Source of the DNA: a virus
Lineage: Duplodnaviria > Heunggongvirae > Uroviricota > Caudoviricetes
Length of the DNA stretch: 4,882 bases
Strand: one strand, 5' to 3'
Virus record (IMG/VR): IMGVR_UViG_2602041586_000004
Positions 1 to 4,882 of the stretch are shown in pieces (within the stretch, counting starts at the first letter, position 1; every line of letters starts with the position of its first letter). Position numbers and translations under genes: made by a program. Below the pieces are notes generated by a model, which saw only the letters and a list, made by a program, of their open reading frames with translations, was not told the origin of the DNA and ran no database searches.

Positions 1-42
1 TATCTGAACATAAAACACTATCAATAAGTTGGAGTCATTACC
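1..42 (+). mobile_element. IS1 right terminus: last 42 bp of the element, including the insB 3' end (1..27, ...YLNIKHYQ stop) and the right inverted repeat
   Basis: Window starts with tatctgaacataaaacactatcaataagttggagtcattacc, which matches the recalled 3' end of IS1. Reverse complement of 20..42 is ggtaatgactccaacttattg, the IS1 right IR. Flanking DNA begins at 43. Confidence 0.85.
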
Positions 43-170
43 AGGCTCCTGATACAAATAGTTTTCTTCTAACAAATAAAGAATACTTATATGGTAAATT
101 TGGTATAAACGGATGGCAAAAATATGTACGATTCTTACGTGCATTCGTTGATGCGTATAAAAATTCCGAC

Positions 171-596
171 ATGATTTATACATATTTGCCTGGTGGTGAT
201 AATTGTACGCTTTCGGCAGACAATAGAATATTCATACCTATACTTGGTCTTGGGCTGATTAATGCAGTAAATGAAAGAGATGTTATAATTGTTAAGCAGT
301 GGCGAAAGCATGAGGGATATAGATATCTGCCATGCTTTGATATATTAAAAATACAGAATAAATTCTATGTAAAAATTAAATATAAAGAAGATGTTTTCTT
401 CCTCAGAAAAAACAAAGATCTTTTACAAGAACTTTCTGGGACAATAGATGTCATCGTAGGTTCTAGGTTTATAAAAGAACTGAAAGAAAGCAGGTCTTTC
501 TCTCGTGTAGAGATAAGCGAGTCAGAGTTATGGGGTATATCAAATAATCCTGTAAACCACGCTCACCAACGAAATCCAAACAAAAAGTGGTCATAA
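171..596 (+). CDS. Hypothetical protein, AT-rich; probably the 3' portion of a larger gene interrupted by IS1 (frame open from 45 to the IS1 junction)
   Basis: 141-codon ORF from ATG 171 to TAA 594..596. The same frame has no stop between 45 and 170, and the other two + frames hit stops at 50 and 70. There is no start codon between 43 and 171 and no clear Shine-Dalgarno before 171. GC is visibly much lower than in the lambda-like block. It sits where lambda carries ral, but has no resemblance to Ral or any family I recognise. Confidence 0.55.
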   Translation: MIYTYLPGGDNCTLSADNRIFIPILGLGLINAVNERDVIIVKQWRKHEGYRYLPCFDILKIQNKFYVKIKYKEDVFFLRKNKDLLQELSGTIDVIVGSRFIKELKESRSFSRVEISESELWGISNNPVNHAHQRNPNKKWS

Positions 597-619
597 CCCG
601 CTCAAGCGGGTTTCATTTT
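597..619 (+). terminator. Rho-independent terminator directly after the AT-rich ORF
   Basis: cccgc (597..601), loop tcaa, gcggg (606..610), followed by tttcatttt (611..619). The T-tract is only on the + strand. Confidence 0.6.
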
Positions 620-648
620 CACGCAAACAAAAGAATAAACACTGCACT

Positions 649-676
649 GTGTATTCATTCCAACGAGTGAATACAC
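649..676. repeat. Perfect 9-bp inverted repeat with 10-bp spacer (GTGTATTCA-N10-TGAATACAC); candidate operator or RNA hairpin
   Basis: 649..657 gtgtattca and 668..676 tgaatacac are exact reverse complements. Lies in the intergenic region between the AT-rich ORF and ea10. Confidence 0.4.
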
Positions 677-783
677 GGAGCAATGTCGCTCGTAACTAAA
701 CAGGAGCCGACTTGTTCTGATTATTGGAAATCTTCTTTGACCTCTAATGTGAGGGCGATTTTTTTCTGTGAGGATATGAACAG

Positions 784-1152
784 ATGTCAAACATCAAAAA
801 ATACATCATTGATTACGACTGGAAAGCATCAATAGAAATTGAAATCGACCATGACTTAATGACAGAGGAAAAACTTCACAAGATTAATAATTTCTGGTCA
901 GACTCTGAATACCGACTCAATAAACACGGCTCTGTATTAAATGCTGTATTAATCATGCTGGCGCAACATGCTCTGCTTATAGCAATTTCAAGCGACTTAA
1001 ATGCATATGGTGTTGTGTGTGAGTTCGACTGGAATGATGGAAATGGTCAGGAAGGATGGCCTACAATGGATGGTAGCGAAGGAATAAGAATTACCGATAT
1101 CGATACATCAGGAATATTTGATTCAGATGATATGACTATCAAAGCCGCCTGA
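784..1152 (+). CDS. ea10: Lambda Ea10-like early protein (122 aa)
   Basis: 369-bp ORF with GAGGA 9 nt upstream of ATG 784. Length and the 72-bp spacing to cIII match recalled lambda coordinates for ea10. Confidence 0.8.
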   Translation: MSNIKKYIIDYDWKASIEIEIDHDLMTEEKLHKINNFWSDSEYRLNKHGSVLNAVLIMLAQHALLIAISSDLNAYGVVCEFDWNDGNGQEGWPTMDGSEGIRITDIDTSGIFDSDDMTIKAA

Positions 1153-1177
1153 GCGCGGCGTTACCGCATACCAATAA

Positions 1178-1198
1178 CGCTTCACTCGAGGCGTTTTT
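1178..1198 (+). terminator. Possible hairpin plus T-tract (attenuator or weak terminator) between ea10 and cIII
   Basis: cgcttc (1178..1183), loop actc, gaggcg (1188..1193) with one G-U pair, then ttttt (1194..1198). Sits just upstream of the cIII Shine-Dalgarno at 1214..1218. Confidence 0.3.
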
Positions 1199-1224
1199 CG
1201 TTATGTATAAATAAGGAGCACACC

Positions 1225-1389
1225 ATGCAATATGCCATTGCAGGGTGGCCTGTTGCTGGCTGCCCTTCCGAATCTTTACTTGAACGAATCACCCGTAAAT
1301 TACGTGACGGATGGAAACGCCTTATCGACATACTTAATCAGCCAGGAGTCCCAAAAAATGGATCAAACACTTATGGCTATCCAGACTAA
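1225..1389 (+). CDS. cIII: cIII, lambda-type inhibitor of host FtsH protease (54 aa)
   Basis: Translates to [54 protein letters not shown], which matches lambda CIII as I recall it. AGGAG at 1214..1218. Not in the supplied ORF track because it is short. Confidence 0.9.
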   Translation: MQYAIAGWPVAGCPSESLLERITRKLRDGWKRLIDILNQPGVPKNGSNTYGYPD

Positions 1390-1501
1390 ATTCACTATCG
1401 CCACTTTTATTGGCGATGAAAAGATGTTTCGTGAAGCCGTCGACGCTTATAAAAAATGTATATTAATGCTGAAACTGAGATCAAGCAAAAGCATTCACTA
1501 A
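1358..1501 (+). CDS. kil: Kil, lambda host-killing / cell-division inhibitor protein (47 aa)
   Basis: Internal ATG 1358 of the 1232..1501 ORF gives [52 protein letters not shown] at 1344..1348. Overlaps the cIII 3' end by 32 bp in another frame, as in lambda. Confidence 0.85.
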
Positions 1502-1576
1502 CCCCCTTTCCTGTTTTCCTAATCAGCCTGGCATTTCGCGGGCGCTATTTTCACAGCCATTTTCAGGAGTTCAGCC

Positions 1577-1873
1577 ATGAACGCTTATTACATTCAGGAT
1601 CGTCTTGAGGCTCAGAGCTGGGCGCGTCACTACCAGCAGATCGCCCGTGAAGAGAAAGAGGCAGAACTGGCAGACGACATGGAAAAAGGCCTGCCCCAGC
1701 ACCTGTTTGAATCGCTATGCATCGATCATTTGCAACGCCACGGGGCCAGCAAAAAAGCCATTACCCGTGCGTTTGATGACGATGTTGAGTTTCAGGAGCG
1801 CATGGCAGAACACATCCGGTACATGGTTGAAACCATTGCTCACCACCAGGTTGATATTGATTCAGAGGTATAA
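1577..1873 (+). CDS. gam: Gam, RecBCD nuclease inhibitor, short form (GamS, 98 aa)
   Basis: [21 protein letters not shown]...[10 protein letters not shown] matches lambda Gam residues 41..138 from memory. AGGAG at 1565..1569, 7 nt before the ATG. Confidence 0.93.
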
Positions 1874-1878
1874 AACGG

Positions 1879-2664
1879 ATGAGTACAGCACTCGCAACGC
1901 TGGCAGGGAAGCTGGCTGAACGTGTCGGCATGGATTCTGTCGACCCACAGGAACTGATCACCACTCTTCGCCAGACGGCATTTAAAGGTGATGCCAGCGA
2001 TGCGCAGTTCATCGCATTGTTGATCGTCGCCAACCAGTACGGCCTTAATCCGTGGACGAAAGAAATTTACGCCTTCCCTGATAAGCAGAACGGCATCGTT
2101 CCGGTGGTGGGCGTTGATGGCTGGTCCCGCATCATCAATGAAAACCAGCAGTTTGATGGCATGGACTTTGAGCAGGACAATGAATCCTGTACATGCCGGA
2201 TTTACCGCAAGGACCGTAATCATCCGATCTGCGTTACCGAATGGATGGATGAATGCCGCCGCGAACCATTCAAAACTCGCGAAGGCAGAGAAATCACGGG
2301 GCCGTGGCAGTCGCATCCCAAACGGATGTTACGGCATAAAGCCATGATTCAGTGTGCCCGTCTGGCCTTCGGATTTGCTGGTATCTATGACAAGGATGAA
2401 GCCGAGCGCATTGTCGAAAATACTGCATACACTGCAGAACGTCAGCCAGAACGCGACATCACTCCGGTTAACGATGAAACCATGCAGGAGATTAACACTC
2501 TGCTGATCGCCCTGGATAAAACATGGGATGACGACTTATTGCCGCTCTGTTCCCAGATATTTCGCCGCGACATTCGCGCATCGTCAGAACTGACACAGGC
2601 CGAAGCAGTGAAAGCTCTTGGATTCCTGAAACAGAAAGCCACTGAGCAGAAGGTGGCAGCATGA
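1879..2664 (+). CDS. bet: Bet (Red-beta), single-strand annealing recombinase (261 aa)
   Basis: [38 protein letters not shown]... is essentially lambda Bet over its full length. Starts 5 bp after the gam stop, as in lambda. Confidence 0.96.
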
Positions 2665-3341
2665 TACCGGACATTATCCTGCAGCGTACCGGGATCGACG
2701 TGAGAGCTGTCGAACAGGGGGATGATGCATGGCACAAATTACGGCTCGGCGTCATCACCGCTTCAGAAGTTCACAACGTGATAGCAAAGCCCCGCTCAGG
2801 AAAGAAGTGGCCTGACATGAAAATGTCCTACTTCCACACCCTGCTGGCTGAGGTTTGCACCGGTGTGGCTCCGGAAGTTAATGCTAAGGCGCTGGCCTGG
2901 GGAAAACAGTACGAGAACGACGCCAGAACCCTGTTTGAATTCACTTCCGGCGTGAATGTTACTGAATCCCCGATCATCTATCGCGACGAAAATATGCGCA
3001 CTGCCTGCTCTCCCGATGGTTTATGCAGTGACGGCAACGGCCTTGAACTGAAATGCCCGTTTACCTCCCGGGATTTCATGAAATTCCGGCTCGGTGGTTT
3101 CGAGGCAATAAAATCGGCTTACATGGCCCAGGTGCAGTACAGCATGTGGGTGACGCGAAAAGATGCCTGGTACTTTGCCAACTATGACCCGCGCATGAAG
3201 CGTGAAGGCCTGCATTATGTCGTGATTGAGCGGAATGAAAAGTACATGGCGAGTTTTGACGAGATGGTGCCGGAGTTCATCGAAAAAATGGACGAGGCAC
3301 TGGCTGAAATTGGTTTTGTATTTGGGGAGCAATGGCGATGA
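2661..3341 (+). CDS. exo: Exo (Red-alpha), lambda 5'-3' dsDNA exonuclease (226 aa)
   Basis: [40 protein letters not shown]...GFVFGEQWR is near-identical to lambda Exo, with a few substitutions relative to my recollection. ATGA overlap with the bet stop. Confidence 0.96.
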
Positions 3342-3357
3342 CGCATCCTCACGATAA

Positions 3358-3771
3358 TATCCGGGTACCGCCTGTAAAGTGTTGCGTGATCAAATAGGCA
3401 AGCATCACAAATGGGTGTTTGTACATACCAAGGCGGCTAAGCGAGCAGATGGAACATCAACGCCTGCGGTCAGGAAGATGCGCATCGACAGCAAGACATC
3501 ATGGCTATCAGCTTGTCGTCGTGCAGGAATTGAAGATTTCCGTTTCCATGACCTCAGACACACCTGGGCAAGCTGGCTGATTCAGTCAGGCGTCCCATTA
3601 TCAGTGCTTCAGGAAATGGGCGGATGGGAGTCCATAGAAATGGTTCGTAGGTATGCTCACCTTGCGCCTAATCATTTGACAGAGCATGCGAGGAAAATAG
3701 ACGACATTTTTGGTGATAATGTCCCAAATATGTCCCACTCTGGAATTATGGAGGATATAAAGAAGGCGTAA
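3358..3771 (+). pseudogene. Tyrosine integrase, C-terminal fragment only (about 130 codons); no start codon, N-terminal and core-binding domains absent
   Basis: Frame opens at 3358 immediately after an in-frame TAA at 3355..3357. The ATG-less translation carries the H-x-x-R box ([11 protein letters not shown]) and the catalytic Tyr (VRRYAHL) but not the upstream box-I Arg region. The supplied ORF begins at GTG 3379, which is an ORF-finder artefact. It ends 15 bp before the argU 3' end, convergent with the tRNA as expected for a tRNA-targeting integrase. Confidence 0.85.
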
Positions 3772-3786
3772 CTGATTGAATTGTAA

Positions 3787-3863
3787 TGGCGCGCCCTGCA
3801 GGATTCGAACCTGCGGCCCACGACTTAGAAGGTCGTTGCTCTATCCAACTGAGCTAAGGGCGC
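3787..3863 (-). tRNA. argU: tRNA-Arg, anticodon UCU (77 nt including encoded CCA)
   Basis: Reverse complement is GCGCCCTTAGCTCAGTTGGATAGAGCAACGACCTTCTAAGTCGTGGGCCGCAGGTTCGAATCCTGCAGGGCGCGCCA. It folds as a cloverleaf: 7-bp acceptor stem, anticodon stem ACGAC/GTCGT, loop CTTCTAA with anticodon TCT, T-loop TTCGAAT. Confidence 0.92.
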
Positions 3864-3894
3864 GTTGATACCGCAATGCGGTGTAATCGCGTGA

Positions 3895-3922
3895 ATTATA
3901 CGGTCAACCCTTGCTGAGTCAA
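3895..3922 (-). promoter_or_regulatory. Sigma70 promoter for argU: TTGACT-N16-TATAAT
   Basis: On the minus strand, -35 TTGACT is at + coordinates 3917..3922 and a perfect -10 TATAAT at 3895..3900, with a 16-nt spacer. The -10 ends 31 nt upstream of the mature tRNA 5' end, consistent with a short processed leader. Confidence 0.6.
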
Positions 3923-4105
3923 TGGCTTTTGATCTGGTTGCTGAACAAGTGAACGACCGCGTCTGATTTTCTGATTTATTTCGCTATAGTGGCAAACAAA
4001 CGCACACCGCTGCGCGTCTGAATCAAGAAAACCCGTATTTTCATGTATCAAAGTACAATTTACCGCCCTAACGGAAAATTGTCCGCTCCTATGAGACTGG
4101 TAACT

Positions 4106-4738
4106 ATGAAACCAACGTCGGTGATCATTATGGATACTCATCCTATCATCAGAATGTCTATTGAAGTTCTGTTGCAAAAAAACAGTGAATTGCAGATTGT
4201 CCTGAAAACGGATGATTACCGCATAACCATCGATTATCTCCGAACCCGTCCTGTTGATTTAATCATTATGGATATAGACTTGCCCGGAACAGACGGTTTT
4301 ACCTTCCTGAAAAGGATCAAACAAATCCAGAGCACAGTGAAAGTGTTATTTTTATCATCGAAATCAGAATGCTTTTATGCTGGCAGAGCGATACAAGCTG
4401 GTGCTAACGGTTTTGTCAGTAAATGCAATGATCAGAATGATATTTTTCATGCCGTTCAGATGATCCTCTCCGGATACACGTTTTTTCCTAGCGAAACGCT
4501 TAACTATATAAAAAGCAATAAATGTAGTACGAATAGTTCAACGATCACTGTGCTATCTAATCGTGAAGTGACCATATTACGTTATCTGGTTAGCGGATTA
4601 TCTAATAAAGAAATTGCCGATAAGTTATTACTTAGCAATAAAACAGTTAGTGCGCATAAATCTAATATTTATGGCAAGCTAGGTTTGCATTCAATTGTAG
4701 AGCTTATCGACTACGCCAAATTATACGAATTAATATAA
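4106..4738 (+). CDS. fimZ: FimZ, NarL/LuxR-family response regulator of fimbrial expression (210 aa)
   Basis: From ATG 4106: MKPTSVIIMDTHPIIRMSIEVLLQKNSELQIVL... with a receiver domain (phospho-acceptor Asp in IIMDIDLPG) and a C-terminal LuxR-type HTH (SNREVTILRYLVSGLSNKEIADKL...SAHKSNIYGKLGL). fimZ lies next to argU in E. coli K-12. The in-frame ATGs at 4043 and 4091 are probably not used. Confidence 0.88.
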   Translation: MKPTSVIIMDTHPIIRMSIEVLLQKNSELQIVLKTDDYRITIDYLRTRPVDLIIMDIDLPGTDGFTFLKRIKQIQSTVKVLFLSSKSECFYAGRAIQAGANGFVSKCNDQNDIFHAVQMILSGYTFFPSETLNYIKSNKCSTNSSTITVLSNREVTILRYLVSGLSNKEIADKLLLSNKTVSAHKSNIYGKLGLHSIVELIDYAKLYELI

Positions 4739-4760
4739 TATTAATTATAATTGATCATAA

Positions 4761-4882
4761 GGTGATGCTGCCAACTTACTGATTTAGTGTATGATGGTGT
4801 TTTTGAGGTGCTCCAGTGGCTTCTGTTTCTATCAGCTGTCCGGTGATGCTGCCAACTTACTGATTTAGTGTATGATGGTGTT
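4761..4882 (+). mobile_element. IS1 left terminus: left IR and insA start (GTG 4816), truncated after 81 bp, followed by a second IS1 left end running to the window edge
   Basis: 4761..4841 matches recalled IS1 positions 1..81 (ggtgatgctgccaacttactgat...cagctgtcc). 4842..4882 restarts with the same 41 nt. The insA frame from GTG 4816 reads MASVSISCP, then runs into the second copy and stops at 4861..4863. Confidence 0.85.
4761..4882. repeat. Head-to-tail direct repeat of the IS1 left end, 81-bp unit, 1.5 copies
   Basis: 4842..4882 is identical to 4761..4801. The first unit is exactly 81 bp. Confidence 0.8.

Follow-up and report, generated by a model that had tools for sequence, protein, structure and literature searches.

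A tandemly doubled IS1 left end beside fimZ, probably the left junction of one IS1 nested in another after nucleotide 81, and the recurrence of this junction in Escherichia coli genomes and plasmids

Standard IS1 (IS1A/IS1B-type, 768 bp, IS1 family) carries a single left inverted repeat (IRL), and its transposase genes insA/insB' are joined by a programmed -1 frameshift at an A6C motif. The ends of IS1 and a major IS1 hot spot in pBR322 are bound by IHF. In composite IS1 transposons of the Tn9 type, any pair formed by an IRL and a right end (IRR) of nearby copies can be used for transposition. In the case of IS30 and IS3-family elements, end-targeted insertion gives rise to head-to-tail IS pairs with abutting inverted repeats and an active IR-IR junction. 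Insertion of IS1 into IS1, recombination within the resulting nest and transposition of sub-segments were found to generate new variants by Kanai et al. (Nucleic Acids Res 2025, PMC12065110). That study made use of an engineered, inducible and enlarged IS1; self-insertion took place at chance frequency, and a site preference within the IS was left open.

Here we describe a stretch of 4,882 nucleotides, referred to as the window, in which an IS1 left end is present twice in tandem. Gene coordinates were transferred to the window from the annotation of the complete genomes H2 and EC190486; fimZ was also contained in the list of open reading frames. The features of the window are as follows.

1 to 42, plus strand: right end of another IS1 copy (IS1 nt 727-768, including the IRR; BLAST, 100% identity), at the left boundary of window and contig
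19 to 31: IHF-consensus match TATCAATAAGTTG in the left-edge IS1 (sequence match only)
171 to 596: hypothetical gene of a prophage remnant
784 to 1152: DUF2528 gene of the prophage remnant
cIII and kil of the prophage remnant, by transferred annotation
1577 to 1873: gam
1879 to 2664: bet
2661 to 3341: exo
3367 to 3771: truncated integrase gene
3787 to 3863, minus strand: tRNA-Arg(tct)
4106 to 4738, plus strand: fimZ, intact, encoding a LuxR-type fimbrial regulator; its stop lies 22 nt before IS1
4741 to 4760, minus strand: last ~6 codons and stop of sfmF, convergent with fimZ; the remainder is severed by the IS1 insertion
4752 to 4760: chromosomal target TGATCATAA of the outer IS1, abutting the IRL in the window
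4761 to 4841, plus strand: outer IS1 (A), nt 1-81 with IRL (BLAST and repeat search)
4768 to 4795: promoter-like sequence CTGCCA-16-TATGAT in IS1 A
4772 to 4784: IHF-like site (consensus match) in IS1 A
4816: insA start (GTG) in IS1 A, 8 2/3 codons before the junction
4816 to 4863, plus strand: chimeric 15-codon open reading frame leading from insA codons 1-8 of A into the IRL of B (translation VASVSISCPVMLPTY, then stop), for which no function is claimed
4833 to 4841: CAGCTGTCC, IS1 nt 73-81, 9-bp target within IS1 A
4842 to 4882, plus strand: inner IS1 (B), nt 1-41 with IRL, where the window stops
4849 to 4876: second promoter-like site (CTGCCA-16-TATGAT), in IS1 B, whose left end has an IHF-like site (consensus match) as well

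A repeat search of the window revealed an exact direct repeat of 41 nt (4761-4801 and 4842-4882) with a start-to-start distance of 81, which cannot have arisen by chance in 4.9 kb. When compared by BLAST with a full IS1 from the closed genome AB66, positions 4761-4841 corresponded to IS1 nt 1-81, positions 4842-4882 to nt 1-41, and positions 1-42 to nt 727-768 in the same orientation, each at 100% identity. Since both edges consist of IS1, the window represents a stretch with IS1 at either side; the right end at positions 1-42 had been missed in the earlier note. Membership in IS1 is further indicated by the left inverted repeat (GGTGATGCTGCCAACTTACTGAT...), the promoter region and the insA start, all of which are present in the window. 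The frame starting at 4816 translates into VASVSISCP and continues in the second left end with VMLPTY and a stop. Repeat search, BLAST and translation agree with the earlier statement that the first IS1 copy ends after 81 bp within insA codon 9, and the BLAST match of positions 4842-4882 bears out that a second left end restarts immediately. The left junction at 4841/4842 reads ...CAGCTGTCC/GGTGATGC..., with the interior of the host IS1 abutting nt 1 of the incoming IS1.

Positions 1-4760 of the window are matched by H2 and EC190486 with two and one mismatches (99.96-99.98% identity), and the match covers the IS1 junction at the left edge. This left-edge junction of IS1 and flank is present in nine complete genomes. 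Positions 43-3863 comprise a lambdoid prophage remnant which adjoins tRNA-Arg(tct) (argU position) and whose bet/exo/gam block is ~98% identical to phage-lambda-like records. In H2 and EC190486 the stops of fimZ and sfmF are 3 nt apart and the site is uninterrupted, TGATCATAA being present in a single copy (...AATTGATCATAAATATCGC...); in AB66 it is found on both sides of the IS1 block. Given the empty site in both relatives, the IS1 at 4761 represents an insertion into the last sfmF codons at TGATCATAA. The last few codons of sfmF are lost with the IS1, and in AB66 this gene is annotated with 510 nt instead of 516 nt.

Both ends of the window stop 41-42 nt within IS1, in keeping with a de Bruijn contig of k≈43. 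One base is missing at the right end because the combination of 'C' and IS1(1-42) also occurs at the IS1 to the left of the same region in the relatives. The window thus looks like a complete short-read contig; as such a contig halts in a multi-copy IS1 repeat, the rest of the structure is not seen: the window ends 41 nt into B, before the remainder of B, the right junction and a second TGATCATAA. The link between junction and flank rests on the assembler and on the evidence from AB66. Contig ends of this kind would also be found if the doubled left end were an assembly artefact, formed either by chimeric reads or by mis-threading of a leader-bearing IS1 from elsewhere onto the IS1 next to fimZ. 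In addition, the 81-bp stretch exceeds k≈43 and is common to all IS1 copies, and read threading was needed to cross it. On the other hand, k-mers spanning the junction must exist in the reads, since assemblers do not invent them.

Occurrence of the junction in other genomes was determined with a query of 54 nt (27+27) in which every 28-mer spans the junction, and a coverage of at least 80% in a single piece was required. Queries of 70 nt were unusable for counts: their halves are joined within any single IS1, and thousands of ordinary copies matched at 100%. The junction was found in 143 records, corresponding to 136 of 5,426 complete E. coli genomes (~2.5%), and was located on 16 plasmids, including plasmids of Salmonella and E. 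fergusonii. Three records, none of them from relatives of the window lineage, were 100% identical to the window junction (GGTGATGC, GGTG type), while the other 37 of the best 40 of the 143 matches had a single difference, at base 4 of the second left end (GGTAATGC). In these best 40 of the 143 matches, the 54 nt of the junction are free of annotated features, and wherever a locus was read, the CDS of the transposase begins in the second IS1 copy only. Automatic annotation and IS typing therefore under-size junction-bearing elements by 81 bp. Exact junction scans of a one-genome-per-species collection, which includes few E. coli genomes, gave no matches. A metagenome scan yielded one contig (OBRH01000619.1) with a GGTA-type leader and an IS1F-like body. 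The leader-bearing element on this contig (L015, 2545-3603) is itself interrupted at nt 56 by another IS with the end GGCTTTGTTGAATAAATCG, presumably an IS903-like element, and displays a third level of nesting.

The finding of the same 54-nt junction in 143 independently finished records runs counter to the assembly artefact which the earlier note had listed as an option; the recurrence itself, like the mobile 849-bp derivative described below, had not been foreseen there. Further, among complete genomes the GGTG-type junction is confined to three, with AB66, H2 and EC190486 not being among them, and no alternative source copy for mis-threading is evident.

An IS1 at the fimZ-sfmF site was detected in only one of the 5,426 complete E. 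coli genomes, namely AB66, a near-identical relative whose sequence is identical to window positions 1046-4841. The arrangement at this site is TGATCATAA - IS1(1-768) - IS1(73-768) - TGATCATAA. The second IS1 block begins with CAGCTGTCC (nt 73-81), and these 9 bp are found both within the first IS1 and directly after its right end; CAGCTGTCC also recurs after the right end of the inner IS1 in VL7S7 and in plasmid 1332KP. The right junction lies outside the window and is known at this locus from AB66, where it reads ...CATTACC/CAGCTGTCCCTCC.... Judged by its sequence, it is exactly the junction to be expected if IS1 B entered IS1 A and thereby duplicated 9 bp up to nt 81. In AB66, the IS1 bodies are 96.6% identical, the second being an IS1A/IS1F mosaic. 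Being different isoforms, they do not represent an assembly duplication; both are annotated as transposase with programmed frameshift. The reciprocal junction with the predicted 9-bp duplication at the same locus is a further argument against an assembly artefact, which we regard as very improbable, and the doubled left end is almost certainly a real IS1-into-IS1 junction. Nested insertion, another option of the earlier note, is strengthened by this right junction and by complete nested copies in closed genomes (see below). The caution expressed there that nested insertion, aberrant transposition and artefact cannot be told apart was justified as long as only the sequence was at hand.

AB66 lacks the leading 81 bp, for which the simplest reading is a recombination between two identical 81-bp left ends. 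Further, a same-orientation IS1 abuts the equivalent of window position 1046 in AB66 (L004, 8397-8438) and positions 43-1045 are absent, which looks like an IS1-mediated adjacent deletion. With respect to both the leader and positions 43-1045, the window appears to hold the older state.

The best explanation, which we consider highly probable, is that IS1 B is nested in IS1 A after nt 81 at the end of sfmF and that the window contains the left junction of what is likely a full pair. IS1 A would have inserted into the last sfmF codons just downstream of fimZ, duplicating TGATCATAA. IS1 B (IS1A-type) would then have entered A, both facing the same way, through staggered cuts around nt 73-81, so that A was split after nt 81. 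As to the order of events, an already nested pair may alternatively have inserted at the site as one unit. The full structure, which is presumably still present in this genome, would likely be A(1-81)-B(1-768)-A(73-768), i.e., 1,545 bp flanked by TGATCATAA. No single assembly displays the complete nested structure at the fimZ-sfmF locus, and the closest closed genome is AB66 with its leaderless form. Recombination between the two 81-bp left ends would remove the leader and result in the 1,464-bp form of AB66. An 849-bp form consisting of leader and IS1 could arise if B recombined with the remainder of A, or if transposition paired the left end of A with the right end of B.

The junction might also be real and yet be present here only in the 849-bp form, generated by recombination between B and A(73-768) or brought in as a unit by a pre-formed double-left-end IS1. 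Among carriers of the junction, the 848/849-bp form clearly predominates. Recombination within a nested pair should also be easier between its direct repeats of 696 bp than between those of 81 bp, and ET734 contains a GGTG-type leader with just one IS1 behind it, in this case a mosaic (848 bp in total). However, AB66 with the same insertion site and sequence keeps both IS1 bodies and cannot derive from the 849-bp form; the common ancestor was therefore the full nested pair, and the window is devoid of any sign of deletion. We thus consider it unlikely that this genome carries the 849-bp form only, and favor the nested pair.

Complete nested pairs whose left junction is identical to that of the window are present elsewhere. 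In VL7S7, the pair (81+768+696 bp) is located near yadN. In ECZP248, it resides inside a porin gene (81+768+697 bp) with the target-site duplication (TSD) TGCCATAAA, and the internal duplication comprises 10 bp (nt 72-81) as compared to 9 bp. The leaderless form of 768+696 bp (1,464 bp) is shared by AB66 and plasmid 1332KP.

IS1 copies were also seen in close proximity without nesting. Plasmid pSJC33-3 (L017, 768-2311) carries two full head-to-tail IS1 copies 8 bp apart (CATGCCCA), and the unit is flanked by the 9-bp duplication GCAGAGAGA. Among the records retrieved with the 70-nt junction query, many others have IS1 nt 73-107 within ~150-600 bp of an IS1 right end on the same strand, frequently with two annotated transposases. 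Such spacing would fit closely spaced direct IS1 pairs; of these, the pSJC33-3 locus was read. These observations hint at frequent insertion of IS1 next to copies already in place and at joint movement of the resulting pairs.

Most carriers of the junction contain an element of 849 bp that consists of an IS1A-type 81-bp leader and an IS1F-like IS1 of 768 bp. The body is IS1F-like over its full length (~98% identity to K-12 IS1F, 91.5% to IS1A), and the leader is 87.7% identical to the first 81 nt of the body. Identical 849-bp copies with TSDs of 8-9 bp occur at five or more distinct sites, including the following.

mqsR: 849-bp element, TSD ACACATACC
melB (three strains): 849-bp element, TSD AAAACGATC
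cbpA-yccE: 849-bp element, TSD GTAATATAC
SC516 locus: 849-bp element, TSD AAAAACCT
Plasmid p20171101CC-1: 849-bp element, TSD GAAAAAAT

As the TSDs flank the outer left end, the 849-bp element transposes as a unit from this end. We infer that the common 849-bp element was formed when an IS1F-like copy had inserted into an IS1A-type host and its IRR was used together with the outer IRL of this host; a source in recombination with the host copy is disfavored by the body, which is IS1F-like to its very end. The second copy in the window starts with GGTGATGC as opposed to GGTAATGC in the common 849-bp family. In this family the leader would be stable because of its limited identity to the start of the body, while identical 81-bp repeats, such as those of the window lineage, would easily be lost. 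No annotation was present for the 81-bp leader under the junction in the records inspected. In the papers searched, no description of an 849-bp IS1, an 81-bp duplication or an IS1 self-insertion hot spot was found; a prior description, for instance in ISfinder, is possible. A candidate in which IS1(1-81) acts as a mobile mini-element landing beside IS1 was rejected, as no target duplication flanks the 81 bp alone.

The loci of the H10407 chromosome (L006, 977-3295) and of plasmids L009 and L010, which contain the 849-bp element and a gene for a hypothetical protein of 166 amino acids (WP_000148192.1), share their left flank. In two of the three loci, i.e., the H10407 chromosome and plasmid L010 (the third being plasmid L009), an inverted IS1 is present as well, which suggests a larger IS1-bounded composite unit carrying the WP_000148192.1 gene.

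Plasmid L009 (1947-2876; strain Res13-Lact-EB12-05) contains three tandem IS1 left ends (81+81+768 bp). The middle one is chimeric, starting with the IS1F-type body start and continuing with the IS1A-type leader, as expected for unequal crossing-over in an identical stretch of 35 nt. This third leader indicates that unequal exchange acts on the structure once it is present, and might be taken in favor of a scenario in which replication slippage or unequal exchange doubled IS1 nt 1-81 in place and a second IS1 never inserted. Yet the boundaries of the 81-bp duplication show no microhomology, and the right junctions of IRR and nt 73 with their 9-bp duplication would be left unexplained. In the common 849-bp family, moreover, leader and body belong to different IS1 isoforms (IS1A-type leader versus IS1F-type body start, 87.7% identity), and slippage was rejected on this ground. 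For the window, we regard such a duplication as scarcely credible, and retain the nested insertion as the origin of the doubled left end.

The natural junction is always located at nt 81 and in the same orientation. Inner copies differ between occurrences (IS1A-like, IS1F-like or mosaic). These differing partners, and the 10-bp duplication in one nest, suggest that the same phosphodiester bond was hit independently, and with the same orientation, at least two or three times. With uniform targeting, each coincidence of bond and orientation would have a chance of ~1 in 1,500. Two points speak against a hot spot. First, a single old event followed by spread and gene conversion could also account for the pattern, as nested pairs can move as units and IS1 copies readily exchange sequence. 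Second, an IS1 inserted at nt 81 in inverted orientation could only have arisen independently, but a search for such copies returned only cross-matches to the direct junction and gave no support for an orientation-independent hot spot. The target at nt 73-81 is located ~50 bp inward of the IHF-like site in the IRL (consensus match). It is conceivable, albeit doubtful at present, that nt 73-81 of IS1 form an orientation-specific hot spot for self-targeting, which is perhaps set by IRL-bound transposase or IHF. Independent insertions would then repeatedly create double-left-end elements, one of which (849 bp) would now be a stable, spreading isoform with two tandem promoter/repressor-binding ends. 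If true, the nt-81 hot spot would offer a simple, testable example of an IS that directs insertion to its own end region.

The unusual end of the contig is therefore trustworthy: it documents that, in an E. coli lineage rich in IS1, one IS1 really did insert into another beside the fimZ/sfm fimbrial genes, and the IS1 insertion costs sfmF its last codons. IS typing and short-read assemblies will mis-size the 849-bp double-left-end IS1 or break on it. The kind of structure is ordinary, as nested IS elements and their derivatives have already been demonstrated experimentally for IS1; added here are the repeated occurrence of the junction at nt 81 and a double-left-end IS1 that is widespread and whose 81-bp leader is unannotated in the records inspected.

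In comparison with standard IS1, the locus shows the same IRL, promoter region and insA start, the outer element is flanked by a 9-bp target duplication, and insAB' with programmed frameshift is annotated in the relatives. It differs in that the left 81 bp, present once with a single IRL in standard IS1, occur twice in tandem, one copy being interrupted by another. As in IS30 and the IS3 family, the IS inserts in fixed orientation beside or within the end region of a copy already present; here, however, the insertion is ~50 bp inside the IRL and leads to a direct IRL...IRL order, and the targeting mechanism is a candidate only. As in Tn9-type composites, where nearby copies provide the ends, the 849-bp element makes use of such an IRL-IRR pair, namely the outer IRL together with the only IRR; unlike these composites it lacks a passenger gene, its 'cargo' being 81 bp of another IS1 left end. 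Finally, the natural forms of 1,545, 1,464 and 849 bp map onto the variant classes of Kanai et al. (PMC12065110), and natural genomes hold all forms derived in laboratory evolution, i.e., the nested pair, both recombination products and the self-transposing sub-segment. Unlike in that study, all natural junctions fall at nt 81, and one of the derivatives has become widespread.
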